In this document: positions 4,398 to 32,812 of the stretch, one piece after another
Layout: each line of letters starts with the position of its first letter
Numbering within the stretch: position 1 is the stretch's first letter
DNA from: a virus
Length of the DNA: 35,420 bases
Virus genome (UHGV): UHGV-0075595
Direction: 5' to 3' (one strand)
Translations under genes and position numbers: made by a program
Notes under the pieces: generated by a model
The model's database searches: none
Told to the model about the DNA's origin: nothing
Seen by the model: the letters and a program-made list of their open reading frames with translations, nothing else

Positions 4398-4501
4398 GTT
4401 AAATCTCCAGATAGTCGCAGCACCCGTTGCGCCGCATATCTGGTTATTCTATTACCCAAAAAACCATATATGGATAGAAAGACTGTGAATATGAATAGAT
4501 A

Positions 4502-4516
4502 TTACCTTTCAGGTAA
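4502..4516. promoter_or_regulatory. Operator-like palindrome TTACCTTTCAGGTAA (member of ATTACC-N5-GGTAAT family)
   Basis: Perfect inverted half-sites; identical 17-mer TATTACCTTTCAGGTAA also at 23570..23586; lies between divergent tailspike and SOS-gene starts. Confidence 0.55.
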
Positions 4517-4555: not shown

Positions 4556-4571
4556 CTGTATAAATATACAG
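4556..4571 (+). promoter_or_regulatory. LexA (SOS) box CTGTATAAATATACAG overlapping a -10-like TATAAAT
   Basis: Exact CTGT-N8-ACAG with AT-rich centre, extended TACTGTATAAATATACAGTT; 23 bp upstream of ATG at 4594. Confidence 0.6.
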
Positions 4572-4593
4572 TTATTGCATGGAGAAGATTAAG

Positions 4594-4851
4594 ATGCAGC
4601 AGTATCACTATCCACTGGAAGAGGGATTTACCGAAAGGATTCACACGCCGGGAGGCGTCAGGTCACTGGTGGAGGGATCGCACTTGATGAAATTACTCCG
4701 GGATCTCGATAAGGATGGATTTAATGTCGATGGCCCACTTGCCGAACTGACTGCACTGATTAACTACGTCACCAGCTCACAGATGTCTATGCAGGATCTG
4801 CAAACACATCTCGACTATTGTGCCGAACAATTACGAAAACAAACCAGATAA
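4594..4851 (+). CDS. Small protein (85 aa) paralogous to the C-terminal domain of the downstream AntA-domain antirepressor; putative SOS-induced immunity modulator
   Basis: GGAGAAG RBS 6 nt upstream of ATG; shares a colinear motif series with the C-terminus of ORF 5169..5825 (IH-[ST]P-[GS]GV ... LM-LL ... DG-V-G ... ELT ... [DI]LQTH--Y); LexA box in its promoter. Confidence 0.55.
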   Translation: MQQYHYPLEEGFTERIHTPGGVRSLVEGSHLMKLLRDLDKDGFNVDGPLAELTALINYVTSSQMSMQDLQTHLDYCAEQLRKQTR

Positions 4852-4854
4852 GGT

Positions 4855-4897
4855 TTGAAATTACCAAATGGAGTGCTTATATTTACCTTTGCGGTAA
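4855..4897 (+). promoter_or_regulatory. Sigma70-like promoter (TTGAAA-17-TATATT) with operator TTACCTTTGCGGTAA overlapping -10/+1
   Basis: -35 at 4855..4860, -10 at 4878..4883, palindrome 4883..4897 with extended arms ATTTACC/GGTAAAT. Confidence 0.5.
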
Positions 4898-5168: not shown

Positions 5169-5825
5169 ATGAACGCTCAACTCATCCCCGTATTCAACGG
5201 CACTATATCTAACGAAACAGCCCTACTTTGTAATGCCCGCGATCTGCACGCTTTTTTAGGTGTTAAAAAGGTGTTTGCAGCATGGATTACAAATCGCATA
5301 TCAGAATACGAATTCATTGAAAATCAAGACTATATTTTGCTTTCCAATTTGGGAAAGCAAACATCTGGTAGAGGCGGCCACAACCGCAAAGAGTACCACC
5401 TCACCCTTGATACAGCCAAAGAGCTGGCGATGGTCGAGCGTAACGAAAAAGGTCGCCAGGTGCGACGCTACTTCATTGAATGCGAGAAACGTTTAAGACA
5501 ACAAGAAACAAAAGTGGAGAAGGTCTTGTCAGGCTTCATGCCCGCCATTATGGAGGCGATCAAGCTGGAAGACAAAAAAGAATACAGTGCCCCACTGAAG
5601 CCCGGCTACCGCAGCCTGATTCACTCGCCGTCTGGTGTTCTCGGCCTGACGGAGAACTCACTGCTGATGAATCTGCTGAACCAGTTACAGGACGACGGGC
5701 ACGACGTATCGGGCGCGGCGGCGGAGCTGACCACCATGTTCTGCTACATCGTTGGTGTGAGCAAATGCCTGCGTGATATCCAGACGCACGCGGAGTACAT
5801 CAACGACAAGGCAGGGTTCTTCTGA
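5169..5825 (+). CDS. Antirepressor, AntA-domain N-terminus plus C-terminal domain shared with ORF 4594..4851
   Basis: 218 aa; N-terminal LIPVFNG...[10 protein letters not shown]...[22 protein letters not shown]...[33 protein letters not shown] matches AntA-type antirepressor domain as recalled; GGAG RBS. Confidence 0.65.
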
Positions 5826-5869: not shown

Positions 5870-5912
5870 TTGCAGACTGGGGGTGAATAGCGTACTATTA
5901 CCTCAAGGGTAA
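5870..5912 (+). promoter_or_regulatory. Sigma70-like promoter (TTGCAG-17-TACTAT) with operator TTACCTCAAGGGTAA overlapping -10/+1
   Basis: -35 5870..5875, -10 5893..5898, palindrome 5898..5912; same promoter-operator architecture as 4855..4897 and 29857..29899. Confidence 0.5.
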
Positions 5913-5971: not shown

Positions 5972-6604
5972 ATGAGAACAAATACAACAAGAAAAGCGAT
6001 GCCATACATTATCCCAGAAGCAGATTTCGATAGAAAACTGAACATGTCTGAGAAGAACACTAGTCACACCGAAAGCTACTTAGCGAAAGGTGTGGTTGAT
6101 TTCGTTCTTCCGGGATTCACAACACCTTATGGTTATCGCCTTGTAAAATCTTGTAATGGCGATCATTACAGAATGATTACTACCAGCGATACTCCAGAAA
6201 CGGTGTATGCGGTTAAGTTAATCTTTCGGGAAGATATCGTCGAAGCCAAAAGAACATGTACGCAGATCATGGTATGGCGTACGCCTAATGTTATTCATGA
6301 CCGTGCTGTTCATGGTTTGCCTCAGATTTTTTTTCAGTTCTTCCTAGAGCAATATGCGATCGTTGTATCTGATGAGCAACAAACAATCGATGGGAGAAGA
6401 TTCTGGGAAAGAATGATTTCTTGGGCTATAAACACCCCAGGATATAATGTATACGTTTCAGATGGCTCTGAAGAAGATAGACCTCTTAGCTTCATGACAT
6501 CATGGGATGATTTCTATAGCCAGTGGGCTGATTTCTGTTGGGGCAGTGATAAAGATGTGCATACCCACAGACTACTGGTTATAAGCAAAGATAAACTGCA
6601 TTAA
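5972..6604 (+). CDS. Hypothetical protein (210 aa), cargo gene of unknown function in the immunity-like island
   Basis: Strong GGGAGG RBS 5 nt upstream; own operator-controlled promoter and own terminator; no family recognised. Confidence 0.6.
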   Translation: MRTNTTRKAMPYIIPEADFDRKLNMSEKNTSHTESYLAKGVVDFVLPGFTTPYGYRLVKSCNGDHYRMITTSDTPETVYAVKLIFREDIVEAKRTCTQIMVWRTPNVIHDRAVHGLPQIFFQFFLEQYAIVVSDEQQTIDGRRFWERMISWAINTPGYNVYVSDGSEEDRPLSFMTSWDDFYSQWADFCWGSDKDVHTHRLLVISKDKLH

Positions 6605-6895: not shown

Positions 6896-7276
6896 TCACG
6901 CAACGCAATTATTACCGCGCCATGTAACATTTTTAATAATCTTATCAGCACCAAACTCAACGTAAACAGAGCAACTGAAATGGAGTGTATAACCGCCATC
7001 AGTTGTTGCGTATGTGTTTGAATATATAGTATTACCAATTAGATTAGACGTAGTATTATACGTTGTGGTTTGTGGTACGTTATAACTACCAGAGCTTGAG
7101 TAAACATACACTCTGTTTCCATCTGGAGATGTAAGCTCTCCCTGAGGATACCCCCACTGCTGAACCATTGCGTCTATACTCTGCCCGCGCCACGTAAGCA
7201 TATTTCTTTCAAACTGTGCAGCTGACTGGCATCCAACGAGAAGCATAAATCCAAAAATCAAAAATACTTTTCTCAT
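6896..7276 (-). CDS. Lipoprotein (predicted), last gene of late operon; possible superinfection-exclusion/surface protein
   Basis: Start at internal ATG giving MRKVFLIFGFMLLVGC lipobox signal; AGGGGT RBS; mature part T/S/N/Y-rich. Confidence 0.55.
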   Translation of the reverse strand: MRKVFLIFGFMLLVGCQSAAQFERNMLTWRGQSIDAMVQQWGYPQGELTSPDGNRVYVYSSSGSYNVPQTTTYNTTSNLIGNTIYSNTYATTDGGYTLHFSCSVYVEFGADKIIKNVTWRGNNCVA

Positions 7277-19588: not shown

Positions 19589-20581
19589 TTACACCACGCG
19601 GGCTTCTGTTTCCAGAAGCGCATCAGTTTCACGGATTGGTACACCACGGAATGAAGTCCACCACTCGCCTTCTGTCTCTTTTACGCTGATCGCCAGAGAT
19701 GTTTTCTCCAGAGACTGCAAATCAAGAGCCTGGCCTACAGTGCGGTTCATGTAGAACACCGGGCGCCCCATGCCACGGTTCGGAATGCGATGCAGTGCTT
19801 TAACCATCAACTTCGCAATATTTGCGGCAGAGGAAGGTTCTGAAAGATTGCTGACATCGATGTTTGCAATGCGAACAACATAACGCCAGTCACGCAGAGC
19901 AAGTCCGTTGTCCCATTTGTAATGGGTACGGTAGCCTTCGTACTTGCCGCCATTCGCATCTTCCAGTGTCACCTGGCCTTTATCTTCCATCTGGATGCCA
20001 GCCTTCTTCCCTTTCGGGAAGATGCCATGCACGGTGTTTTCGCCCCACACTACTAACCAGATTGAGGTGTTATCTGTACCCGTGCCACCAGCATCAATGA
20101 TGTTCTGAGCATTACCCGCAGACAGGCTGGAATAGCGGGAGGACAGTCCCATAAACTGCTGAGGGTTAACGCTGGAATCACCATAAAACAGCGTCTGCGC
20201 CATCTGCTGATTCATCGCTTCAATAAATGCGCGGTCTTCAGACAGGCGGAATTCGGCGGTATTGCCGTTCAGATCAGCCAGTGACTTATCGACTTCAGCA
20301 TAGGTTTCCAGCATGCCCACGGAATCGGTTACCTGCACTGTGGTTGATTTGCTTGGCTGTACGCCATAGTTCAGCAAACGCCAGGTAGCTGAAGGTAAAC
20401 CAGAACGAATGGTGGTTCGGTGTCCGGTAGGAAGGTTCCCTTCGACAAAAGGCATATCCTGAAGGATCGGGTTAGTTTGACCGAGAAGCTCGATAATCTT
20501 ATCGACTTTCCCGTTTGGATCGACGCGCTTACCCCAGTCAGCCAGCGTCAGCGCAGTTAAGCCTTTAACAGCCATTGTCAT
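19589..20581 (-). CDS. Major capsid protein
   Basis: 330 aa; follows scaffold-like gene and portal; family not verified. Confidence 0.65.
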   Translation of the reverse strand: MTMAVKGLTALTLADWGKRVDPNGKVDKIIELLGQTNPILQDMPFVEGNLPTGHRTTIRSGLPSATWRLLNYGVQPSKSTTVQVTDSVGMLETYAEVDKSLADLNGNTAEFRLSEDRAFIEAMNQQMAQTLFYGDSSVNPQQFMGLSSRYSSLSAGNAQNIIDAGGTGTDNTSIWLVVWGENTVHGIFPKGKKAGIQMEDKGQVTLEDANGGKYEGYRTHYKWDNGLALRDWRYVVRIANIDVSNLSEPSSAANIAKLMVKALHRIPNRGMGRPVFYMNRTVGQALDLQSLEKTSLAISVKETEGEWWTSFRGVPIRETDALLETEARVV

Positions 20582-21584: not shown

Positions 21585-23260
21585 TGTGATTGCCCACCCT
21601 GACCACTAACTGCATTCGCCATAGCTGAAAACACACTCGGATCCGAAGTTTTAGCTTCGCTTAGCGTCTTGGCCCCCTGTGCCGCCGCCATCCCCATCGC
21701 CATCATTTGTTGCTGCTGTTGTTGCTGTGCCCGTTGCTGGCGAGCCTGCTCAACCTGTTCCTGCGGAACAATGACGGTTGGAGACACTCCGGACATATCA
21801 GCGAATGCATCGATCGCCTGATCAACGTTGAGTTTGTCGAGAGCTTCTGGTTTCGCTTGCGCAAGTTGACCAATGAAGTTGACCGTAGACGCCAGACTGG
21901 ACAGGCCGATAGACTTCTGCGCCTGAGCCATGACGGAAATGTATTCGACCTTCAGGGGCATACCTTCCATCGCGTCAGGCGGTGGCGGCAGCATGTTTTT
22001 ACGCACCATCATCGAGAAAGCGCGGTCAATGAGAGGATTAAGACATTCGTCGTTCAGACGCTCCAGAACCGGCCCCAACATCAGAAGTTTTTCTTCTTTC
22101 ATTTCGATCACTGCTTCAACAGGCATCGAGCGGGTATTGATGTTCTGCAACATCATGAACAGATCGACAAAGTAGGCGCTGTTAATGATTTGACGAGTGT
22201 CCTGAATGTCTGCCACCAAATCTGCTGTACTGGGGTTAACCAGATAAGCAGGCCTGAAACCATCCTGACCAGTAATCTGATCGATATACGTGATGTCGCC
22301 AGGAAGAAGGGAGGCACGCTGATTCTTGAGGGAAGTCGGAGCAACCATCGGCGGATTGGTGGCTTTATCAATCAACTGCGACTTGCGCTTCTGGAGAAGC
22401 TGCAATGCCTTAACAGGTCCAAGCGCCAGCATACCCGGGCATGATGATCCATAAACATCTTCGCCATTAACTTCCCAGCGCGGAGCCATAATTGGAAACT
22501 CATCAAATCCGGACTCACGCAACAACTTGTCGTTATCGCCACCAACCTCGTAATAAACCGATTTGAATGGCTTGTTCTTGCTATCCAGCTTCGATGTATC
22601 GCGGTCAATGTTCGGGTAAACCGAATGCATCACGTCAATCCACTTCTCGTAGGTGCCGCTTTCCCACATGCTTTTTACGGATTCGCTGACGTTATTTAGC
22701 CCGAACTCCTGAACAAGCTGACGAACAGTCATAGAGAACTTGCGAAAACAGGTGTCCACACTGCCACGAGGTGAGTTAGCCAGGTAGTAACTGCCTATCG
22801 GGAATGGCATTGTGCGAATGATGTCCTCGTCATCCTCCAGCACCGCCATTGCACCAGTGCTGTATGTGCCGAGGCTTCCGTATAACTGCGGAAGAGACTG
22901 GTAGAGATTCGACTTATTGAACATATCGTTCATGCGGTTCTGCACCGCCTCGAGCCACAACTTAACAGGACCATAATCCATCATTTCAGGATCTGGCGTA
23001 GCCAGGCGAAACCACGGACGCGCAGGGCTTGTGATGCCTGACATCATGCCGCTGGCGAGAGTGCGCGCCGCCATAGTCCCGGTCGAATCAATAATGCGTG
23101 TATTGCGTCGATCGTTACGGTTGACCTCAGAAGTCAGAAAGCGGGAACCACGCGGGTTGATGTAATCACTCAACTCGCGCCAGTGCGGCTCGAACGACTG
23201 ACGCTCGCTTTCAAGTTGTGCGAACTGTTTGTTCAATCGCTCTTTAGTTGTTTCCGCCAT
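21581..23260 (-). CDS. Portal (head-to-tail connector) protein, T7 gp8-like
   Basis: 559 aa; C-terminal QQRAQQQQQQQMMAMGMAAAQGA tail resembles T7 gp8 C-terminus; GGAG RBS. Confidence 0.75.
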   Translation of the reverse strand: MAETTKERLNKQFAQLESERQSFEPHWRELSDYINPRGSRFLTSEVNRNDRRNTRIIDSTGTMAARTLASGMMSGITSPARPWFRLATPDPEMMDYGPVKLWLEAVQNRMNDMFNKSNLYQSLPQLYGSLGTYSTGAMAVLEDDEDIIRTMPFPIGSYYLANSPRGSVDTCFRKFSMTVRQLVQEFGLNNVSESVKSMWESGTYEKWIDVMHSVYPNIDRDTSKLDSKNKPFKSVYYEVGGDNDKLLRESGFDEFPIMAPRWEVNGEDVYGSSCPGMLALGPVKALQLLQKRKSQLIDKATNPPMVAPTSLKNQRASLLPGDITYIDQITGQDGFRPAYLVNPSTADLVADIQDTRQIINSAYFVDLFMMLQNINTRSMPVEAVIEMKEEKLLMLGPVLERLNDECLNPLIDRAFSMMVRKNMLPPPPDAMEGMPLKVEYISVMAQAQKSIGLSSLASTVNFIGQLAQAKPEALDKLNVDQAIDAFADMSGVSPTVIVPQEQVEQARQQRAQQQQQQQMMAMGMAAAQGAKTLSEAKTSDPSVFSAMANAVSGQGGQSQ

Positions 23261-23274
23261 TTCAATGACTCCGG

Positions 23275-23481
23275 TTACTGACCAAGCAGCGTTTTACCGC
23301 TGGTATTAGCGGTTGATGTGTCGCCCTGAGAACCGGTAAGCAGCGTAGAACTACGACCAGCAGCAGCGCGACGGCGACGAGTTTCTTCGTCGCGGGCATC
23401 AACAACGGCGGCATCCTGCTCCTGTGGTGCTGCCTGAACTTCTGGTGTTGCAGGCACTGATGGTGAGCTACCCATGCACAT
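23275..23481 (-). CDS. Small acidic/Ser-rich hypothetical protein, first gene of late operon
   Basis: 68 aa; translation-initiation region GGAGTCATTGATATG nearly identical to that of portal (GGAGTCATTGAAATG). Confidence 0.45.
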   Translation of the reverse strand: MCMGSSPSVPATPEVQAAPQEQDAAVVDARDEETRRRRAAAGRSSTLLTGSQGDTSTANTSGKTLLGQ

Positions 23482-23571
23482 ATCAATGACTCCGTACGCA
23501 ATTAAATTATTACCAATTTAACCACATATGATTTATTTATCGTAGAAGGTTGACATTTAACGCGTGAATTA

Positions 23572-23586
23572 TTACCTTTCAGGTAA
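23572..23586. promoter_or_regulatory. Operator-like palindrome TTACCTTTCAGGTAA in the late-operon / tRNA control region
   Basis: Identical to site at 4502..4516; preceded by TTGACA (23550..23555) and AATTAT; half-site TTACCAATTTAACCA at 23510..23524. Confidence 0.55.
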
Positions 23587-23908
23587 CCAAAGAGCTCATT
23601 CTGGTTACTAACCTGACTGGCTTGTCGTTAAATTAAACAGGTGGAGTGAGCTTTTATTTTGAGCAGTACGGCGTATGGCACATGCGCCGATAGCGGTCTG
23701 GATACGTTTAAGGGGCACCCTCCCTTGCTCGGGCAAACGAACCAGGTAGCCGGAATGTGCAAGTCGAGCGGTTTTATTCCGCGCACGGGGATTCACCATC
23801 CCGGCGATTCGGTGTGACGCCTCGGAAGAGACGAGGGTACAACGATGAGAGCATTTATGGAGCCGCGACAAAGTGTGGCGCCTTAACAGGCTAAGTGCTC
23901 TCAGCGTT

Positions 23909-23985
23909 GTGGCATTAGCTCAGTTGGACAGAGCAACCGCCTTCTAAGCGGTTGGTCGCAGGTTCGAATCCTGCATGCCACGCCA
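23909..23985 (+). tRNA. tRNA-Arg (anticodon UCU, reads AGA/AGG)
   Basis: Manually folded cloverleaf: acceptor GTGGCAT/ATGCCAC, D-stem GCTC/GAGC, anticodon stem ACCGC/GCGGT with loop CTTCTAA, T-arm GCAGG-TTCGAAT-CCTGC, discriminator G, encoded CCA. Confidence 0.85.
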
Positions 23986-23994
23986 GAATCACGC

Positions 23995-24474
23995 CTAAGG
24001 ACCGTGATGCCAGAAGTTCCAGGTGCTTGGCGGTGATGGTTTCCCTTGAACAGCCCATTCAAGACCATCTTTTTGACCTTGGAGATAATCAAGCGGCAAC
24101 TCTTCATGATTACTTGCAGGTTCGGCACTATGAAGCATGGCAGCGCGGCAGGCGTTCCAGCCTCTCACCTCTGCAATAGCGGCAACAGCATCAACCGCGT
24201 ACATGCTAAGAGGATTAGGCATTGGTTTTTCTTCCGGTACTACTGGCACTGGAGGGGTGGCGTAGAGTGGAACTCCTCCCCCTCCACCAGAAAATTCATT
24301 GCGAGCGTTATACTCACGACCATCTGCGTCATCACGCATCCACGCCACCGGTTCTGCTTCCAGCGATGCCAGTGCAATTTCATAAGCACGGCGCTCAATA
24401 TTGTCTCGAACGTCCAGGCTGCCTATGCGCTCTTTGATTTCTTTAATCATTTCTTTGTCGGTGAAAGTGCTCAT
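23995..24474 (-). CDS. Hypothetical early protein
   Basis: Start at ATG 24474 with perfect AAGGAG RBS 6 nt upstream (track start is upstream TTG). Confidence 0.45.
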   Translation of the reverse strand: MSTFTDKEMIKEIKERIGSLDVRDNIERRAYEIALASLEAEPVAWMRDDADGREYNARNEFSGGGGGVPLYATPPVPVVPEEKPMPNPLSMYAVDAVAAIAEVRGWNACRAAMLHSAEPASNHEELPLDYLQGQKDGLEWAVQGKPSPPSTWNFWHHGP

Positions 24475-24475
24475 A

Positions 24476-25210
24476 TCAATCTCCTTTGGTACCAATGTTT
24501 ACAGCCTGGCAAGCCTCTTTGAGCACCCAGTCAACAGCGTCTTTCCATGCTCCGGTTTCGACTGGCGGATTCTCACGCTTTACCTGTTCATAGAAGCACA
24601 CTGCTTTAACCAGTCCTTCCGGTACTACTGGTGATGGCTGTTTAGCTTCTAAATCAGCAATTCTGTCAACCACGGCATCTACGGCATCTGAAAAGCCGAA
24701 CCAGTTACTCCACTCCGGCCTATCCCCGGTTGCTGCAAAGTACATATCAGCCAAAGCAGACTCAGCATGGTCACGCTCGTTAATGAGTTGCTCTTCGCTT
24801 TTCTCCAGTTCAGCAATACGCTTACTTCCATCCGAGATAACACCTTCGTAATACTCGCGCTGCTCGTTGAGTTTTGATTTTGTCTCCTCAAGCTCAACAC
24901 GCAGTTTCCCTACCGTTAGCGCAATATCCTCGTTCTCCTGGTCACGGCGTTTGATGTATTGCTGGTTTCTTTCCCGTTCATCCAGCAGCGCCTGCACTAC
25001 TTCAGGGTTGAAAGCTGCGATATAACGAGCGTTGTTCTCTGCGTTGTTCTGTCCATCAAAGCCGGTCCATTTGATAACGTCTTCACATCGTTTATCACCA
25101 GGTGTATGCACCGCATATGTACCAGTACCAGACGAAATAAATGCGACCCATTCACCCTGTGTTGCCAGTTGCGCCGCCTCACGCAGTGCCTGATAGTCAA
25201 TCTTGTTCAT
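24476..25210 (-). CDS. Hypothetical early protein with central coiled coil (resembles lambdoid Ea22/Ead-type proteins, unverified)
   Basis: 244 aa; AGGGTG RBS; E/R/K/Q-rich helical middle region. Confidence 0.4.
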   Translation of the reverse strand: MNKIDYQALREAAQLATQGEWVAFISSGTGTYAVHTPGDKRCEDVIKWTGFDGQNNAENNARYIAAFNPEVVQALLDERERNQQYIKRRDQENEDIALTVGKLRVELEETKSKLNEQREYYEGVISDGSKRIAELEKSEEQLINERDHAESALADMYFAATGDRPEWSNWFGFSDAVDAVVDRIADLEAKQPSPVVPEGLVKAVCFYEQVKRENPPVETGAWKDAVDWVLKEACQAVNIGTKGD

Positions 25211-25211
25211 G

Positions 25212-25511
25212 TCACATCACCCTGAATCCGTTGCATTTACGTAAGAAATCGCAGATATAGCCCTTCATTTTTTCATGCCAATCTCGATCATTCCCATTGC
25301 ACCAACCATCAGGTGGAGTCCAGTTTTCTATCAGAGCAGCCATTTTCTTTGCTTTCGCCGGAGTAGCTGTTGCGGTATCGCAGTAATGACGAGTGTCAAC
25401 CAACGCATCCATACCATCGATATCAAGTACGCAAAACCATGTGTGATTCGGAATTCCTACAGGTGGTATTTGTTGCCCACGTCGACGTTTATCAATAAGA
25501 TATACACTCAC
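25212..25511 (-). CDS. Hypothetical early protein (Cys/His/Trp-containing)
   Basis: GTG start at 25511 with AGGAGG RBS, overlapping upstream stop (GTGA coupling). Confidence 0.4.
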   Translation of the reverse strand: MSVYLIDKRRRGQQIPPVGIPNHTWFCVLDIDGMDALVDTRHYCDTATATPAKAKKMAALIENWTPPDGWCNGNDRDWHEKMKGYICDFLRKCNGFRVM

Positions 25512-26308
25512 TGCTTGCCTCCTTTGCGAATCTGTTCCGCCCATTCTTCAAGGGATTTCTCCGCATATTCACCGGACAGGCCATCAATCGGATGCGGTTC
25601 ATTAGCCAACTCTTCTTTCGCTGACAAAATCATGCGTGTAACGTCGAAAACTTCACGCAAAGATTTATTGATAAATCCGTGATTGAACGCAGCAGCAAGA
25701 CGGCTGGCGGTATAGTTAATCCCCTCGTTGCGTGCTTCCGCACGTACTTCAGCAAGGAAGGCATCGGTGGCTGGGGTTTCGACATTAGGTCGAAGCTCAT
25801 AATCACAAACTCTTTCAATCCATGGTGATACTCTGTCGCATTTCCTCTTCTTGCGTTCACCGACCTTGGTTGCCTGCTGAATAATTACCCCCCAGCAAAT
25901 GCTTTCGACCTCTTCGCTCCATCCATCGCAAGCATCGCCTCTATAGTCGTCAATTGCAGCCTCAGCAGCAGCGATAGCCTCCTCAGCAGTTTTGTGACAC
26001 TCGAAACTAAATTCAGAGCCATATGAGAAATACATAGCCCCGGCCTTCAGTCTTGCATTCTCCGCCGCCAACGCCGAAAACTTCTCGTGTGCCAACTTAA
26101 CAGCCGAATCAGCCTGCTTAATTGACTCAGTCGCTCTCTGGTGGTCTTCGGCCAGCGCATTAGCACGCACCAGTTGCACTTCCAGTTGCGTTGCCAAATC
26201 GCTGATCAGCTTTGCCACACTGCGCATATCAACGGCACCACATTCTGCTTTCAATTCCGAAGCCATCTCATGCCCGGCGGCAACTAACCCTTTGATGTTA
26301 CTTTCCAT
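25508..26308 (-). CDS. Hypothetical early protein with N-terminal coiled coil
   Basis: 266 aa; GAGGGT RBS. Confidence 0.4.
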   Translation of the reverse strand: MESNIKGLVAAGHEMASELKAECGAVDMRSVAKLISDLATQLEVQLVRANALAEDHQRATESIKQADSAVKLAHEKFSALAAENARLKAGAMYFSYGSEFSFECHKTAEEAIAAAEAAIDDYRGDACDGWSEEVESICWGVIIQQATKVGERKKRKCDRVSPWIERVCDYELRPNVETPATDAFLAEVRAEARNEGINYTASRLAAAFNHGFINKSLREVFDVTRMILSAKEELANEPHPIDGLSGEYAEKSLEEWAEQIRKGGKQ

Positions 26309-26369
26309 CTTTACCCTCGCTTATCCACATAACTTATTGATTACATTGATAACTAAAAATATCGTCGAT

Positions 26370-26714
26370 TCAGAACTCTTCGATGTTCCAGCCACCACCT
26401 GCTTTCTTTGGCTTAACCGTTACCCCGATGATTCGGAACGGATACTGATCTGCGGCGACTTTGGTTTTCACCCTGGCGTCGTCGGTCCAGAAACCTTTCA
26501 CTTCGTGCAGTTCCATCTCTCCGGTGGCGAGCATCACAGCGAAATCTGGCGTATAGAACGTGTTGTCAGCTAACCGCAGCTTGATACCCTCAAATCGATA
26601 CCAGACGATTTCTCCTGCACGTTTACGCATCTCAAGGTGCTGACAATACGCAGATTCTGTTTTGTTCATCTGGCCTGTTTTGAGTCGACCAAGAGCCTGT
26701 ATCTGTTTTCTCAT
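26370..26714 (-). CDS. Putative small PD-(D/E)xK nuclease (VRR-NUC-like or RusA-like)
   Basis: 114 aa; motif TPDFAV...EMELHEVKG consistent with PD...E-x-K; AGGGG RBS; operator overlaps RBS. Confidence 0.35.
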   Translation of the reverse strand: MRKQIQALGRLKTGQMNKTESAYCQHLEMRKRAGEIVWYRFEGIKLRLADNTFYTPDFAVMLATGEMELHEVKGFWTDDARVKTKVAADQYPFRIIGVTVKPKKAGGGWNIEEF

Positions 26715-26717
26715 GAT

Positions 26718-26732
26718 TTACCCCTGAGGTAA
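26718..26732. promoter_or_regulatory. Operator-like palindrome TTACCCCTGAGGTAA overlapping RBS of gene 26370..26714
   Basis: Perfect half-sites; 62 bp from site at 26780. Confidence 0.5.
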
Positions 26733-26779
26733 TTAAAAACCACATAAGACACGAAATCAATAGATTTTAGAATATTTTA

Positions 26780-26794
26780 TTACCTCATAGGTAA
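26780..26794. promoter_or_regulatory. Operator-like palindrome TTACCTCATAGGTAA downstream of P-like gene
   Basis: Perfect half-sites with ATTACC/GGTAAT extension; adjacent weak hairpin plus T7 run on minus strand. Confidence 0.5.
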
Positions 26795-26831
26795 TTATTG
26801 AGACGTAAAAAAATGCGCTATCGCGCTGGTA

Positions 26832-27632
26832 TTACTTGATAAATCCTGCCGCCTTTCCCCGCCTGTATTCCTCCATCAGCCACTGCGCCGGTGTTATTCC
26901 CCCCAGGGTGGCGGCGTTAGGCATGCACCCGAAACTTCGCCCTGGCGGGTGGTAAACGTCTCTCCCTGTGTCCGGAGGTGTACTCATGGGCTCTGGCTTT
27001 GCCTGTATGCTGATCACCGGATCGGGTATCTGCTGTCCGGAAGCCACCTTTTTCGCCCAATCATCGAGCAGCCTGCGCGCGTGTTTCTCAACCTCAATCT
27101 CGCTAAGCTGGCGCTGATACATTGCACGGCGGGTATCACATACGACCCAGTACATAACCGGATGCCGCCACGGGAATCTTTCGGGACCACCAGGATATAA
27201 ACTTTTTTCCTTGCTGTACCGGTGAAACTCCGCCATCACATCGTCAATGGTGACGCCAAGAACCATCTTGCTGTCTTTGCACCACTTGATAAATTGCCCT
27301 GGAGACGGCCAGAACGGAGATTCACTGGCGCGGGCGTGGCGCATACCAGCAGAAACCTGTTCACGGGTTCGGATCCCCCCTTCGGCAAACGCAGCAATCC
27401 ACTGCTGTTTTGCAGCAACTTCCTGCTCTGGCGTCTTCAGGTTGGTTACCACTGCCGCCGGAAACAGTTGTTTCAGCTGTTTAAAAAGGGCATCAACAAG
27501 CCTCTCTGCTGACATGTTCACCACATTGTCATTGTTGACGTACTGATGCTCATAACCTGACATGCGAGAAAGGGCTTCTCCGTCACGGTTTTGTATCGCG
27601 GTAAAAACGTTGTTCACAAGAAATCCTCCCAT
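26832..27632 (-). CDS. Replication protein P-like (helicase loader, lambda P family)
   Basis: Motifs QWIAAFAEGGIRTREQVSAGMRHARASESPFWPSPGQFIKWC and YPGGPERFPWRHPVMYWVV match lambda P as recalled. Confidence 0.7.
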   Translation of the reverse strand: MGGFLVNNVFTAIQNRDGEALSRMSGYEHQYVNNDNVVNMSAERLVDALFKQLKQLFPAAVVTNLKTPEQEVAAKQQWIAAFAEGGIRTREQVSAGMRHARASESPFWPSPGQFIKWCKDSKMVLGVTIDDVMAEFHRYSKEKSLYPGGPERFPWRHPVMYWVVCDTRRAMYQRQLSEIEVEKHARRLLDDWAKKVASGQQIPDPVISIQAKPEPMSTPPDTGRDVYHPPGRSFGCMPNAATLGGITPAQWLMEEYRRGKAAGFIK

Positions 27633-28429
27633 GCTTCAGGGCTGTTCCAGTGCGGAACGTTGTTATCAGGTAATGTTGATTGCTTCTGTCTGCTAATCTG
27701 CAGCCGCCTTGCCAGCTTCTGCTCCCACTGTGCCTGATGGTATGCCTTACCCTCAGCCATCCAGTAAATTCTGAACTCTGCAAGTTCCTGTGCCGTTGGC
27801 AGACTGTCCAGGTAGATCCCCTGCAATGAGCTTTTCCGAAGAAAGTCATCTGATGGCTGCCATTGTTCATGCATGACAAATTTGCCTAATTGCCCTGGCC
27901 CACCAGGAGGAACAAAGTTATTCATCACGGCGTTGTTTGCTCCGGGGTCATGAGGCACAGAATCCCCGCTTTTTGTCCTGCTCTCCCTCTCTTGGTTAAA
28001 TGACTGGTTATATGACTGGTTCTGGATCCCGTTTTTGGGATCATTCAACATCCCGTTTTTGGGATCATTCAACATCCCGTTTTTGGGTATATTCCCGTTT
28101 TCGGGTATATTCCCGTTTTCGGGTTCATTGCCCCACTCCCGGTTGCCTTTAATGTTCCCGTTTTTGGTTATATTAAGAGAGAAAACCCGCACTCTTTTTG
28201 TCGCTCCCTTTCTCTCTCCGGTATCTGAAATAAGCCCCATTTTCATGAGCGATATAAGCCCGGCCTGCACGGTTTTTTTATTCAGGCAAGTGTCTTTAAC
28301 GAGGCGTTCTATGCTGGGGTAGCAGAGGTTATATTCATCGGCTCTGTCAGCCATCGAGAGCAGTATGAGCTTTAATGATGAGCTACCTGGATCTGTCTCC
28401 CAGGCCCAATCTGTTGCATGTCTGCTCAT
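27614..28429 (-). CDS. Replication initiator, lambda O-like (N-terminal winged-helix domain, internal iteron-encoded repeats, C-terminal P-interaction region)
   Basis: 271 aa; tandem DNA repeats inside the gene give the peptide repeat NGNIPENGNIPKNGMLNDPKNGMLNDPKNG; directly upstream of P-like gene. Confidence 0.6.
   Translation of the reverse strand: MSRHATDWAWETDPGSSSLKLILLSMADRADEYNLCYPSIERLVKDTCLNKKTVQAGLISLMKMGLISDTGERKGATKRVRVFSLNITKNGNIKGNREWGNEPENGNIPENGNIPKNGMLNDPKNGMLNDPKNGIQNQSYNQSFNQERESRTKSGDSVPHDPGANNAVMNNFVPPGGPGQLGKFVMHEQWQPSDDFLRKSSLQGIYLDSLPTAQELAEFRIYWMAEGKAYHQAQWEQKLARRLQISRQKQSTLPDNNVPHWNSPEAWEDFL
28026..28130. repeat. Replication-origin iterons: five tandem 18-24 bp repeats (core CCCGTTTT(T)GGG(A)T(C)ATTC) inside the O-like gene
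   Basis: Two identical 24-mers ATCCCGTTTTTGGGATCATTCAAC followed by three degenerate copies; further partial copy near 28156..28176 and AT-rich tract. Confidence 0.6.
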
Positions 28430-28444
28430 GATTAATCTCCGCTA

Positions 28445-28645
28445 TCAGCTTGAGTGTTGTGGGGAGGAATTAATCATGATCTGCTTAATCTCTGCCCTGA
28501 TGCGACGGTTTGACTCCATGGTGCACTCAACACAGTGTCCGTTGTAAACCCAGCGTTCACTGTCATGTCCGTGCTTACATGGTTTTCCGGTGTAGTAGCG
28601 TTTAAGTCCGCGCTTTGCGGCATCAATACGTGTAATGATTTCCAT
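28445..28645 (-). CDS. Small putative zinc-binding protein (C-x2-H ... C-x2-C)
   Basis: Start at internal ATG 28645 (MEIITRIDAAKRGLKRYYTGKPCKHGH...CVEC). Confidence 0.4.
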   Translation of the reverse strand: MEIITRIDAAKRGLKRYYTGKPCKHGHDSERWVYNGHCVECTMESNRRIRAEIKQIMINSSPQHSS

Positions 28646-28725
28646 GGTAAGCCCTGTTATTAGTATTGGGATTACGGTTATTTTGTGCTGACACAAAAAA
28701 AAGATCAACCAGATTTGGTTTTTTA

Positions 28726-28740
28726 TTACCTTTGAGGTAC
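28726..28740. promoter_or_regulatory. Operator-like palindrome TTACCTTTGAGGTAC (one mismatch) between Cro-like gene terminator and downstream genes
   Basis: Half-site mismatch in right arm. Confidence 0.4.
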
Positions 28741-28745
28741 GAATA

Positions 28746-28773
28746 GATATGAAAAGACCGCCGGATGGCGGTC
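28746..28773 (-). terminator. Rho-independent terminator after Cro-like gene (GACCGCC-atcc-GGCGGTC then TTTTCATAT on minus strand)
   Basis: 7-bp GC-rich stem at 28756..28773, T-rich tract on minus strand; 23 nt downstream of stop at 28796. Confidence 0.55.
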
Positions 28774-28795
28774 TACAGAGGGTTGTTGCCAGATA

Positions 28796-29026
28796 TCATG
28801 AGTAGAAGAAGTATGCCAGTTCCGCTTTTGAGCGCAGCCATTGTCTTGTTTTACAGGCTTTAAAAAGCCCATTCATCAATACCTTACCTGGCATTTTGCG
28901 CTTACCTGTTAAGTGAGTCTGGATATAGTGACTCGTCGTTCCGGCTTCCTGTGCGAAGGCTTCACGCTCATCCGGAGTAAGTGCAAGCCAGTGCTTTTTG
29001 AAATCGAAATGTCCGTTATCGCTCAT
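28796..29026 (-). CDS. Cro-like HTH regulator
   Basis: 76 aa; helix-turn-helix-like AFAQEAGTTSHYIQTHLTGKRKMP; divergent from repressor gene across operator cluster. Confidence 0.45.
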   Translation of the reverse strand: MSDNGHFDFKKHWLALTPDEREAFAQEAGTTSHYIQTHLTGKRKMPGKVLMNGLFKACKTRQWLRSKAELAYFFYS

Positions 29027-29062
29027 AGCTATTGCCTGATATTTATTTCAGATAATAAATAT

Positions 29063-29125
29063 TCACCCATAAGGTAACAAAAATCAAGGATAGTTACCTA
29101 TGGGGTGCATTTACCTGTTGGGTAA
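29063..29125. promoter_or_regulatory. Immunity operator cluster (three sites: TCACCCATAAGGTAA 29063..29077, TTACCTATGGGGTGC 29094..29108, TTACCTGTTGGGTAA 29111..29125)
   Basis: Three related palindromes in the 154-bp gap between divergent Cro-like and repressor genes; first two are inverted near-copies of each other. Confidence 0.6.
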
Positions 29126-29180
29126 TATTGCTTTAAATTGAATCATCTACTGATTCATATATGAGGCGATTTTCCAGAAA

Positions 29181-29765
29181 ATGAAAAGTATCCAGGACGT
29201 CCGCAGGCAAAATCTCAACGACTTGATCGACCGTGAATTCAATGGTGTTCAGACGCGGATGGCAGAAAAACTTGGAACTCAGGCAAATCTGGTAAACCGC
29301 TGGGCTCTTGGCAAGAAGGTTATCGGCGACCAGGTTGCGCGAAAAATTGAAGCTGCCGCCAATAAACCCCGTAACTGGCTTGATATCGATCGCTCGCTTT
29401 CTCAGGAAGGTTTTCAGCCTGTCGGCCCAAGCGACATTGGTCAGCTGGCAGCTCACAACCTGGAACGCTGGATGAGTGAAAGCCGCGACCTTTCAACTCA
29501 GGGAAAACTTCACCGCGCATCCGGCGTCGCCCAGGTGACAATCAGTCGCCTGTTAAACAATGAGGTCAGCGTTTCCATTTCCACCCTGGAGAATGTTGCA
29601 TCCGCATTCGGGCGTCACGGATATGAACTACTGATTCACCCGCACGACCCTGCGACTATCAACTATGACCGCTCGCGCTACGCATTGTTACCCGAAACCG
29701 AGAAAGCAAAGATCGAAAGTTACATTGAATTTGTCATCAACCAGAACGAAAAAAACAAACAATAA
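29181..29765 (+). CDS. Repressor with tandem XRE-type HTH domains, no recognisable LexA-like S24 autocleavage domain
   Basis: 194 aa; two HTH-like segments (MAEKLGTQANLVNRWALGKK... and LHRASGVAQVTISRLLNNEV...); followed by strong terminator. Confidence 0.6.
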   Translation: MKSIQDVRRQNLNDLIDREFNGVQTRMAEKLGTQANLVNRWALGKKVIGDQVARKIEAAANKPRNWLDIDRSLSQEGFQPVGPSDIGQLAAHNLERWMSESRDLSTQGKLHRASGVAQVTISRLLNNEVSVSISTLENVASAFGRHGYELLIHPHDPATINYDRSRYALLPETEKAKIESYIEFVINQNEKNKQ

Positions 29766-29785
29766 AATCATACTCTTCAGTAAGT

Positions 29786-29809
29786 AAGCCGCCTTCTGGC
29801 GGCTTTTTT
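29786..29809 (+). terminator. Rho-independent terminator (AAGCCGCC-ttct-GGCGGCTT followed by T-run)
   Basis: 8-bp stem directly after repressor stop. Confidence 0.7.
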
Positions 29810-29822
29810 ATTGCCTATACTA

Positions 29823-29899
29823 TTACCTAATGGGTAATTTTTTTAACTCATATCTATTGACATCAAACCAAATACGCATAATTATTACCTCAACGGTAA
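29823..29899 (+). promoter_or_regulatory. Left-operon-like promoter (TTGACA-17-AATTAT) flanked by two operators (TTACCTAATGGGTAA 29823..29837; TTACCTCAACGGTAA 29885..29899)
   Basis: -35 at 29857..29862; operators 62 bp apart centre to centre; downstream operator overlaps -10/+1. Confidence 0.55.
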
Positions 29900-29918
29900 C
29901 AGACCGAGGTAACAAGTT

Positions 29919-30071
29919 ATGCAGTGGAAAATCATCAACGGTTGGTACTGCGTTACTGCATGCGGATTCATGAGCTGGAAGTTCCGCACCTTACAGGAAG
30001 GCATTAAGTGGGCTTTCGTCAGCAAAGAAGCTCGCGATGTAGCCAACGATAACGAGATATGGGAGGGCTGA
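29919..30071 (+). CDS. Small hypothetical protein (50 aa, Trp/Cys-rich)
   Basis: Not in ORF track (below size cutoff); ATG with GAGGT RBS 8 nt upstream; hand-translated. Confidence 0.3.
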   Translation: MQWKIINGWYCVTACGFMSWKFRTLQEGIKWAFVSKEARDVANDNEIWEG

Positions 30072-30073
30072 TA

Positions 30074-30373
30074 ATGAACGTTAATCAGCAGAAAAATCTT
30101 CAAAAAATCATGCTGGCATTCGACAAGGACTACCGCCTGTCAGAACAGCTATATGACCGACAAGTTGAACTGATTGAGAGCATCCGACTTCATCAACTGT
30201 CCTCAACTTTCGACGTTGTAACAGGCAAAGGCGTTCGTCAGGAAGTGCTGGAGGCTGCTAAAGACAGCCCTGAGTTCGAAGAACTGATGGATGCCTACCG
30301 GCGCGAGGCAATGGCAATTATAGCGCGCTGGGATCTGGCGGATCAGCTTGATGGACAGAGGGACGCGGCATGA
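30074..30373 (+). CDS. Hypothetical early protein
   Basis: Start at ATG 30074 with GGGAGGG RBS; stop overlaps next start (ATGA). Confidence 0.45.
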   Translation: MNVNQQKNLQKIMLAFDKDYRLSEQLYDRQVELIESIRLHQLSSTFDVVTGKGVRQEVLEAAKDSPEFEELMDAYRREAMAIIARWDLADQLDGQRDAA

Positions 30374-31191
30374 AACCGGGAATTTATTTCGACATCAGCA
30401 ACGAAGACTACCACGCCGGTGACGGCGTGAGTAAGTCGCAACTGGACATGGTTGCCAAGAATCCGGCGCTTCTTAAATGGGTTCAGGCAGCACCAGAAGA
30501 CGAAGAGAAAAAGTCTGCACTGGATATGGGAACCGCATTGCACTGTCTGCTTCTGGAGCCTGGAGAATTCGACAAACGCTTCATTGTTTCACCGAAGTTC
30601 GATCGTCGGACGAAACAAGGTAAAGCTGACGAAGAAGCATTTCTTCGTGATGTAGCGGATATGGGGATTACGGTACTTGATGCCGAGCAGTGGCGGAAAC
30701 TGGAGCTGATGCGTGATAGCGCAATGGCTCACCCGGCGGCACGCTGGATGCTGGAAGCACCTGGTTACTGCGAAGCATCAATGTACTGGAACGATGAAGA
30801 GACGGGTGAGTTGTGCCGAATTCGTCCAGACAAATGGCTGAACGAGCACAACGTGATCGTCGACGTGAAAAAGGTTGCAGATATGGACCGTTTTGCACGT
30901 CACATCGAGGAATTCCGCTACCACGTGCAGGACGCAATGTACCGCGAAGGCGCAATGAGGGTTACTGGTCAGCCGCATGGTTTTTTCTTTCTTGCCGTGA
31001 GCGAAAGCATTGATTGTGGTCGGTATCCGGTACGCGTGTTCGGGCTGGATGCGCCGGATGTCGATGCCGGGCACGCTCTGTTCCGCCGGGATCTGAATAC
31101 CTATCACGAATGCCGCATCAGCGATGAATGGGGCGGCGTGGAAATTATTAAACGCCCTGAGTGGGCACGCAAACAGGATATGTACGTATGA
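30370..31191 (+). CDS. RecE-family PD-(D/E)xK exonuclease (nuclease-domain-only form)
   Basis: GIYFDISNEDYHA...LHCLLLEPGEFDKRFIVSPKFDRRTKQGKADEEAFLR resembles RecE C-terminal nuclease domain as recalled; paired with RecT. Confidence 0.65.
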   Translation: MKPGIYFDISNEDYHAGDGVSKSQLDMVAKNPALLKWVQAAPEDEEKKSALDMGTALHCLLLEPGEFDKRFIVSPKFDRRTKQGKADEEAFLRDVADMGITVLDAEQWRKLELMRDSAMAHPAARWMLEAPGYCEASMYWNDEETGELCRIRPDKWLNEHNVIVDVKKVADMDRFARHIEEFRYHVQDAMYREGAMRVTGQPHGFFFLAVSESIDCGRYPVRVFGLDAPDVDAGHALFRRDLNTYHECRISDEWGGVEIIKRPEWARKQDMYV

Positions 31192-32105
31192 GCAACGAAA
31201 TTGCAATCACCAATGATGTGTTGGCTATTCGGGGAATCGATGAAGTTACATGGAGCGCTCTGAAAAACAGTATTTACCCTGGGGCAAAAGATGAATCGGT
31301 AATGATGGCAGTCGATTACTGCCGGGCGCGTCAACTCGATCCTCTTCTTAAGCCGGTACACCTGGTACCAATGAGTGTTAAAGACTCGAAGAGTGGAAAG
31401 AATGAATGGCGCGACGTGGTCATGCCTGGCATTGGACTTTATCGCATTCAGGCCTACCGTTCCGGCGATTACGCAGGCGCTAATGAACCTGAGTTCGGTC
31501 CAGATGTAACACAAACGCTTTCAGGCGTGGAGGTTACCTTCCCTCAGTGGTGTAAGTACACCGTCAGCAAGCGAATGGCAAGCGGGGAAATCGTAGAGTT
31601 TAGCGCCAAAGAATACTGGATTGAGAACTATGCAACTGGGGGGCGTGACACATCGGCACCAAATGCCATGTGGAAAAAGCGCCCTTATGCGCAGTTGGCA
31701 AAATGCGCAGAGGCACAGGCATTACGTAAAGCATGGCCGGAGATTGGTCAACAAGCCACAGCTGAGGAAATGGAAGGTAAATATATCGACTCACCTGACA
31801 TTATTGAACGTGACGTAACTCCAAGAAGTCAGGCAAAGCACGGCACAGCATCCAGCATGAACAGTCTGATCAACGCTAAACCAGTGAAAAAGCATGATGA
31901 GCAAACGCGTAAAGCGGATAGCCGTGATCCAGAAGAAATGCTGATGGCCTTTACCAGCGCAGCGATGAATTACAGCACTGTCTCCGAACTGGATAAGGCT
32001 TACAAATACATTGCACAAAAACTTTCAGATGATGACGAACTGCTGGCAAAAGCCACCGACGTTTACAGCGTTCGTCGGGAAGAATTAAACGAAACATCTA
32101 TGTAA
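31188..32105 (+). CDS. recT: RecT single-strand annealing recombinase
   Basis: Motif MWKKRPYAQLAKCAEAQALRKAWPE characteristic of RecT; ATG overlaps upstream stop (ATGA). Confidence 0.8.
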   Translation: MSNEIAITNDVLAIRGIDEVTWSALKNSIYPGAKDESVMMAVDYCRARQLDPLLKPVHLVPMSVKDSKSGKNEWRDVVMPGIGLYRIQAYRSGDYAGANEPEFGPDVTQTLSGVEVTFPQWCKYTVSKRMASGEIVEFSAKEYWIENYATGGRDTSAPNAMWKKRPYAQLAKCAEAQALRKAWPEIGQQATAEEMEGKYIDSPDIIERDVTPRSQAKHGTASSMNSLINAKPVKKHDEQTRKADSRDPEEMLMAFTSAAMNYSTVSELDKAYKYIAQKLSDDDELLAKATDVYSVRREELNETSM

Positions 32106-32512: not shown

Positions 32513-32812
32513 GTGAGAAAGTTAAGCCGACTTGAAAAATATCACATGAACAAGGTTTCAATGCGCCGTCCTTCAAAGGTTATCGCCGTTACTCCTGCGG
32601 CGATAGAGATCGAAAAACGCGCGATTGAAAGAGAGAAAAAAGGGCAGTTCCGCATTGCCGCTCACCTTTGGCTTCAGTGTATGGATGTTGCTTCTGGTGA
32701 TGTTGAACGTGCAAGGATCGCGGTTCGCAGGGACCAATGTATCACAAAAGGTAACGGCCTTCGCCGTGGCGACTATAGCGGCATAGGATGTTGTGGGGTG
32801 GTTTATGACTAA
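32513..32812 (+). CDS. PerC-family transcriptional regulator-like protein
   Basis: 99 aa; GQFRIAAHLWLQCMDVASGDVERARIAVRRDQC resembles PerC/Pch signature as recalled; GTG start with GAGAGGG RBS. Confidence 0.4.
   Translation: MRKLSRLEKYHMNKVSMRRPSKVIAVTPAAIEIEKRAIEREKKGQFRIAAHLWLQCMDVASGDVERARIAVRRDQCITKGNGLRRGDYSGIGCCGVVYD

Follow-up and report, generated by a model that had tools for sequence, protein, structure and literature searches.

What holds two pairs of repressor sites in one phage genome at exactly the same spacing? The window, UHGV virus genome UHGV-0075595 (35,420 nucleotides, analysed as a whole), belongs to an epsilon15/phiV10-like temperate podophage (Uetakevirus) of Escherichia coli. 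It contains palindromes of the form TTACC-N5-GGTAA in pairs at 26718/26780 and 29823/29885. A sequence-only reading took both pairs to be operators about six helical turns apart and suggested cooperative binding or short-range looping by repressor oligomers. The spacing is exactly 62 bp from start to start in both pairs, which corresponds to 5.9 turns at 10.5 bp per turn, and it is 61–63 bp in almost all relatives examined. Two exact 62-bp pairs are far beyond chance and reflect a module that brackets promoters and is conserved in a repressor-operator system already known. It can be regarded as secure, from the sequence, that the paired sites are operators of the phage repressor Rep and that each pair brackets one early promoter. 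It is moderately probable, by analogy with a characterised homologue, that the two operators of each pair are bridged by one Rep tetramer on the same helix face.

The motif is highly enriched. TTACC-N5-GGTAA is seen in nine perfect copies in the window against 0.01 expected, a number reached in none of 100 shuffles. They start at 4502, 4883, 5898, 23572, 26718, 26780, 29111, 29823, and 29885. Imperfect copies are found at 28726 and 29063 (one mismatch) and at 29094 (two mismatches). By simple arithmetic, two close-pair spacings (~15–100 bp) would match in about 1/86 of cases; the cross-lineage data given below are much stronger.

The epsilon15 RefSeq record (NC_004775.2) contains the same core at syntenic places, annotated as "protein_bind: repressor; lysogeny". 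Among the annotated sites are the 62-bp pair downstream of rep (32554–32570 and 32616–32632), a single member of the left pair, and the counterparts of 4502 and 23572. Therefore, the operator motif itself is not new. The record differs in that it annotates neither the second site of the left pair nor those lying between rep and the cro-like gene, in having a third site 76 bp past the proximal one, and in making no comment on spacing. The operator consensus given for epsilon15 by Kropinski et al. in 2007 is said to be close to ATTACCWDWWNGGTAAT.

The right module follows rep in the order rep terminator (29786–29805), distal operator, A/T-rich tract, promoter, proximal operator, Shine-Dalgarno sequence, and ATG at 29919. 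The distal operator, TTACCTAATGGGTAA (29823–29837), is a perfect motif that lies 18 bp past the terminator with its centre at about −62, and the tract that follows it is AATTTTTTTAAC. Between the two operators is a sigma-70 promoter, TTGACA-17-AATTAT (29857–29885, plus strand), which the promoter scan called with 10/12 matches. Its −35 is TTGACA at 29857–29862 and its −10, after a 17-bp spacer, is AATTAT at 29880–29885. The first T of the proximal operator, TTACCTCAACGGTAA (29885–29899), is the last base of the −10, and its centre is at about +1. The block CTATTGAC of this promoter is unchanged across 10 diverse relatives.

The left module is read in the opposite direction. Its distal operator, TTACCTCATAGGTAA (26780–26794), is again a perfect motif and is conserved in relatives. 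It is preceded, as read on the minus strand, by a short GC hairpin and T7 run at about 26807–26828, which were seen by eye and not called by the terminator scan. The A/T-rich tract after the operator is AATAAAATATTC, and the minus-strand sequence there, CTATTGATT, contains the putative −35. The leftward promoter (26732–26760, minus strand) was read from the sequence as TTGATT at 26760–26755, a 17-bp spacer, and TTTAAT at 26737–26732; with this weak −10 it was not called by the promoter scan. The proximal operator, TTACCCCTGAGGTAA (26718–26732), overlaps the end of the −10, the probable start of transcription, and the ribosome-binding site that serves a DUF1064 gene (ATG at 26714). The centre of this operator, CAGGGG, is that ribosome-binding site.

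The two promoters had been counted as independent, which is not fully correct. The modules share their plan and an identical CTATTGA block at the −35, which starts 16 nt past the distal operator in both and is invariant in 10 relatives on the left. Between the left and right modules, 23/47 inter-operator positions match (p ~0.009 against shuffles), and 16/40 match outside the −35 block. The two modules may be paralogous; these position matches neither prove nor exclude their common descent.

The rep gene (29181–29765, plus strand) encodes 194 amino acids with an N-terminal Cro/YdaS-like helix-turn-helix (HTH), a middle HTH_3-like domain, and a C-terminal tetramerisation region. By phmmer, residues 1–190 align with the repressor of SPC32H (PDB 5D50_A) at E = 4e-42 and ~42% identity. 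Pfam gives HTH domains only for Rep, with no S24 peptidase (autocleavage) domain. In the Rep alignment, the N-terminal recognition stretch NLVNRW and the C-terminal F184 are invariant, and the C-terminal aromatic positions (Y/F) are kept. The small antirepressor Ant (4579–4851, plus strand; 90 amino acids) matches PDB 5D50_E at E = 1.7e-47 with ~89% identity. A perfect LexA box of the form CTGT-N8-ACAG, CTGTATAAATATACAG (4556–4571), ends 7 bp before the ant ATG, and an equivalent box is visible before ant in epsilon15. This SOS box at the promoter suggests that ant is probably under LexA control.

The Rep-Ant-LexA switch of the Salmonella phage SPC32H was reportedly described by Kim and Ryu in 2013 and by Kim et al. 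in 2016 (PDB 5D50, 5D4Z). With Rep, Ant, the LexA box, and syntenic operators all found, the window carries, judged from its sequence, an immunity system of the epsilon15/SPC32H type. The likeness to SPC32H extends to full-length Rep homology, the missing peptidase domain, the LexA box before ant, the Uetakevirus genome type, and the operator motif, which is that of epsilon15, a close relative of SPC32H. The differences are the host, E. coli, and the low identity of Rep. The contrast between Ant and Rep (~89% and only ~42%) is a separate observation; it points either to strong conservation of the surface of Rep that Ant contacts or to an ant module that travels between immunity types.

The proposal that the sites are operators of an oligomeric repressor is thus supported in outline, Rep being a full-length homologue of a repressor described as a DNA-binding tetramer. 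According to PMC9638917, SPC32H Rep switches between dimer and tetramer; the tetramer binds DNA and the dimer binds it only weakly. In the same account, the head pairs that read a palindrome are drawn from different dimers, a single tetramer is enough for repression, and Ant, itself tetrameric, splits the Rep tetramer. A 2023 paper (PMC9986798) describes the C-terminal domain as a p53-like "TetDloop" fold, places the middle-domain pairs ~100 Å apart, and says of the mechanism of repression that it "has not been extensively characterized".

Spacing of the operators among relatives

Relatives were drawn from annotated phage records, GTDB genomes, IMG/VR, and a protein search, the last of which gave 143 Rep clusters, all in Enterobacterales. 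The first IMG/VR scan gave identical Rep only and was used for a variability footprint; further scans were made with other Rep variants. The resulting comparison of spacings covers 19 lineages with Rep identities of 42–100%. The TTACC-N5-GGTAA core is common to all 19, and so is the N-terminal NLVNRW.

The right pair is spaced 61–63 bp in 17 of the 19 lineages, one of which has an N4 variant of the distal operator and still measures 62 bp from start to start. It is spaced 74–75 bp in the other two (Yersinia and Serratia). The left pair is spaced 61–62 bp in 16/19 lineages, and in 3/19 the left operators are adjacent at 18 bp. Three operators between rep and the cro-like gene keep the offsets 0 / 30–31 / 47–48 in 18/19. 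In alignments of ten diverse modules per side, there is no indel of more than 1 bp between the operators, and identity there is well below that of the operators. The flanking lengths vary widely: 52–326 bp separate the rep stop from the first operator, and the leaders range from ~20 to ~90 nt. Among ~85 close relatives, the half-sites never vary, and T-run variants with 61 or 63 bp are rare. The N5 centres of the distal operators (26785–26789 and 29828–29832) are the most variable positions of the modules among phages with identical Rep, above the surrounding non-coding DNA.

The same spacings recur in a wider set. Across 212 loci, 302 distinct neighbour pairs were collected, and almost all are spaced 17–18, 30–31, 47–48, 61–64, or 73–76 bp. 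Rare spacings are 20, 41, 78, 80, 105–107, 131, and 145 bp. At 32–46, 49–60, 65–72, and 81–104 bp, no pair is found except the single one at 41 bp. Pairs that bracket a promoter are at 61–64 bp (5.8–6.1 turns) or at 73–75 bp (7.0–7.1 turns, probably one event), with none at 65–72 bp. Other site pairs are out of phase (17–18, 47–48, and 76–80 bp). Abutting pairs at 17–18 bp occupy the left promoter in three lineages and are also seen between rep and the cro-like gene and, in phiv142-3, upstream of terS.

The clade of Yersinia and Serratia shows how the longer spacing is built. Here the promoter-bracketing pair is 73–75 bp apart. The left half of the old proximal operator persists at +61/+62, where it abuts the −10, and 12–13 bp beyond this remnant there is a new, complete palindrome. 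The spacing has thus changed by +11 to +13 bp, or roughly one turn of the helix, and no other change of this size is seen in a promoter-bracketing pair.

More distant relatives, which share only the N-terminal part of Rep (Paraburkholderia, Hydrogenovibrio, and Thiomicrospira), have no TTACC-N5-GGTAA sites at the loci scanned. Searches of the reachable literature for the consensus and for operators of Uetakevirus or SPC32H, not covering the primary SPC32H papers, found nothing on spacing. These results describe a new family member of a known system, with a modest new spacing rule not stated in the reachable literature; the novelty is low to moderate.

Proposed bridging by one Rep tetramer and the alternatives

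The homologue of Rep is a tetramer with two head pairs, and the simplest reading is therefore one tetramer on both operators. This reading also gains from the constancy of the spacing down to 42% Rep identity beside flanks of variable length, and from the single larger change, which preserves the helical phase. The distal operator, ~62 bp upstream of the start and right behind the terminator of the preceding operon, and the proximal operator, which covers the start site, would be occupied together. Rep would bind as a tetramer that carries two DNA-reading head pairs, and the tetramer would grip the two operators of a pair simultaneously, with both on one helix face. The 47 bp between them, bearing the −35 and the spacer, would be bent, and RNA polymerase would be excluded. 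Repression in the lysogen would thereby be tight and cooperative. Upon SOS induction, LexA would leave the box before ant, and Ant would break up the Rep tetramer, so that both early promoters would fire together.

Short-range looping and cooperativity of this kind are familiar from lambda CI, whose sites cooperate at 5–6 integral turns, from LacI (O1–O3, 92 bp), and from GalR (OE/OI). The Rep modules resemble these systems in having two operators on the same face that bracket or flank a promoter, and in the presumed oligomer with at least two DNA-binding units. They differ in that a loop of 62 bp would be among the shorter natural ones and would take in the entire core promoter, and in the fold of Rep and its proposed cross-dimer pairing of heads. 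A closer parallel can be seen in Rco of plasmid pLS20, for which PMC9986798 describes a loop of ~75 bp and the TetDloop fold in common with SPC32H Rep.

Several points weigh against bridging. The contour distance between paired sites is 211 Å, and bringing them to 100–180 Å needs a bend of ~110–220 degrees by an arc estimate, depending on linker reach; such a strong bend is demanding, though within the range known for LacI-type short loops. The spacing could be pinned by promoter anatomy alone, the proximal operator being locked to the −10 and the −35 being fixed. The two modules may be ancient duplicates, so that their equal spacing would not represent two independent events. Likewise, the +12 bp shift of Yersinia and Serratia probably arose only once in evolution. 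Several operators stand alone (4502, 4883, 5898, 23572, and 28726), and third operators occur at the out-of-phase distance of 76–80 bp. The 62-bp geometry is not obligatory, because three lineages use the adjacent 18-bp pair on the left. The abutting layout also gives two operators per promoter, which fits the idea of a tetramer that needs two sites.

The main rival is independent occupancy, in which the proximal operator blocks the −10 and the start, the distal operator blocks the UP-element region or read-through, and 62 bp is simply the distance between these two landmarks. Sequence analysis cannot separate this from bridging, and on the whole we consider it somewhat unlikely. The placement of the distal operator suits it, directly after a terminator or terminator-like hairpin and followed by an A/T-rich tract. 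Moreover, rep is transcribed towards the right pair, where a roadblock would be useful, while the operon upstream of the left pair is itself repressed in the lysogen and a roadblock is unneeded there. Promoters with a single operator of the proximal type exist, for example at 4855–4897, and some lineages have replaced the left distal operator by an adjacent pair. Nearly every early promoter in the 19 lineages nevertheless has two operators, bracketing or adjacent. In addition, the characterised homologue, according to secondary accounts, binds as a tetramer and only weakly as a dimer, and a lone operator would leave half of the heads unused.

The spacing might also be inherited without having a function, as part of a duplicated promoter cassette in short intergenic stretches that rarely gain or lose bases. 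The shared CTATTGA block at the same offset, the 23/47 matching positions, and the predominance of close relatives among the surveyed loci are what one would expect in that case. Against it, few positions match outside the −35 block, and the spacing holds at 42% Rep identity with diverged sequence between the operators, while flanking distances shift by tens of bases. The T7 run beside the distal operator is prone to slippage, yet variants of 61 or 63 bp are rare. Functionless inheritance is thus very unlikely.

Bridging of each pair by one tetramer is therefore the reading that we prefer. A broader form of it can be put forward only tentatively, from the observed spacings and by analogy with the SPC32H tetramer. 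The Rep tetramer might act as a fixed ruler that accepts two operators either abutting (17–18 bp) or six, rarely seven, turns apart, with the core promoter in a microloop of ~62 bp. If so, the ruler would explain why two operators in quantised spacings are seen at nearly every Rep-controlled early promoter, and the loops would be among the shortest natural repression loops.

If one tetramer bridges each pair, the modules would offer a natural setting in which to study very short DNA loops around a promoter. Bridging would also supply the DNA-side half of the SPC32H Rep-Ant model, with cross-paired heads on real operators. If the sites act independently, this would be an ordinary phage immunity region. 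The operator map points to the genes that are silent in lysogens of the phiV10 type (E. coli O157 and related strains), namely those of two early operons, both antirepressor genes, and a tRNA cassette. The module might also find use as a promoter part that is compact, SOS-inducible, and tightly repressed.

Half-sites, the operator at 23572, and a second motif

The sequence-only reading had extended the pairing to lone half-sites, 62 bp from the operator at 23572 (at 23510) and 50 bp from the operator at 4502 (at 4452). TTACC is indeed present at both places and at these distances, but the pairing is not above chance. Within 100 bp of full operators there are 5 orphan TTACC/GGTAA half-sites, where 4.4 would be expected; they are no commoner there than elsewhere, and half-sites were rejected as operator partners. 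The heptamer TATTACC is seen 11 times on the plus strand, and 7 of these are within operators. Two further copies outside any full operator are at 6910 and 7030, 120 bp apart.

The half-sites at 23510 and 4452 sit in a different conserved block of the minus strand, CATATGTGGTT-N5-GGTAATAAT / CCATATATGGTT-N5-GGTAATAGAAT, which is also present in epsilon15. One copy, CATATGTGGTTAAATTGGTAATAAT (23506–23530, minus strand), holds the half-site 23510 and lies shortly upstream of a gp3-like gene. The related copy, CCATATATGGTTTTTTGGGTAATAGAAT (4446–4473, minus strand), holds 4452 and lies shortly upstream of the tailspike gene. Both are almost identical in epsilon15; the sequence between block and operator has diverged, and the distances of 62 and 50 bp are retained. 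The blocks look like activator-dependent late promoter elements rather than halves of operators. That a full operator cooperates with a lone half-site is thus highly improbable, even though the half-sites exist, extend to TATTACC, and hold their distances in epsilon15. The partner pentamer is AACCA instead of GGTAA, both half-sites are inside a longer conserved block of other sequence just upstream of late-strand genes, and 50 bp corresponds to 4.8 turns, out of phase with 62 bp.

The operator at 23572 had been labelled a late-promoter site, which is doubtful. On the plus strand, TTGACA (23550–23555) precedes the operator (23572–23586) by 16 bp and is separated by a 17-bp spacer from a putative −10, TACCTT, within the operator. 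In epsilon15, TTGACA and the operator are equally far apart, with a different sequence in between. This putative promoter (23550–23586, plus strand), which the promoter scan did not call, reads towards a tRNA-Arg(UCU) gene at 23909–23985 (plus strand; found by ARAGORN, Rfam 73 bits), opposite to the late genes. Based on this arrangement, the operator probably controls the opposite-strand tRNA-Arg cassette rather than a late promoter, an assignment made tentatively. In the GenBank record of phiv142-3, the same tRNA (23993–24069) is annotated on the other strand as a 69-nt feature.

A second motif, AACCAYATA, is found at 4462–4470, 23520–23528, and 26738–26746, each time 5 nt from a Rep half-site. 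Three copies are seen against 0.52 expected, and three were reached in 2 of 100 shuffles. Variants of it lie in the spacer of the right promoter (near 29863) and beside the operator 28726 (minus strand, 28712). The left-promoter spacers of 10 lineages conserve its reverse complement, TATGTGGTT. A DnaA box, a Cro site, and an extended −10 were weighed as explanations of the motif, and none fits convincingly.

Other operators and the genome context

In the region 22000–32000, megablast gives 97–98% identity to the Escherichia phages phiv142-3, vB_EcoP_PAS61, ZX5, TL-2011b, and phiV10, all of which are Uetakevirus, that is, epsilon15-like temperate podophages. The gene order is that of phiv142-3: lysis genes, tailspike, ant region, virion genes, portal, early genes, rep, recET, and integrase. 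Genes for the small and large terminase subunits are missing from the window; in phiv142-3 they follow the tRNA and precede the Ea22/DUF551 genes. Positions 24050–24803 correspond to 24134–28112 of phiv142-3, so ~4 kb is swapped for ~750 bp. No terminase-like open reading frame (ORF) is found among the ORFs of the window, and no complete E. coli genome carries the junction in 23900–25000 at a coverage of at least 80%. The terminase-less window looks like the product of a misassembly or like a prophage defective in packaging. BLAST similarity to phiv142-3 runs on to 24050, and the idea of a mosaic or deletion junction exactly at the operator 23572 was rejected.

Between rep and the cro-like gene, three operators matched by the motif start at 29063, 29094, and 29111 (29063–29125; offsets 0/31/48). 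They overlap a leftward promoter, TTGTTA-17-TATTAT (29080–29052). The 31-bp step is exactly half of 62 bp, and the 17-bp step places neighbours on roughly opposite faces. The cro-like gene (28796–29026, minus strand; 76 amino acids) is an ORF divergent from rep and syntenic with epsilon15 gp39, and its product has no Pfam match. After the terminator of this gene is a solitary operator with one mismatch, TTACCTTTGAGGTAC (28726–28740).

The remaining operators lie around the antirepressor genes. The solitary operator 4502–4516, which corresponds to the annotated site 19895–19911 of epsilon15, is upstream of ant and divergent from the tailspike gene. Another is at 5898–5912, upstream of an ORF at 5972–6604. 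The operator 4883–4897 belongs to a putative Rep-controlled promoter, TTGAAA-17-TATATT (4855–4897, plus strand), in which the last base of the −10 is also the first T of the operator. Downstream of it is an AntA/AntB-type gene at 5169–5825. The window thus has two candidate antirepressors, the small Ant and the AntA/AntB type, which are unrelated to each other, and the LexA box is seen only at the small one.

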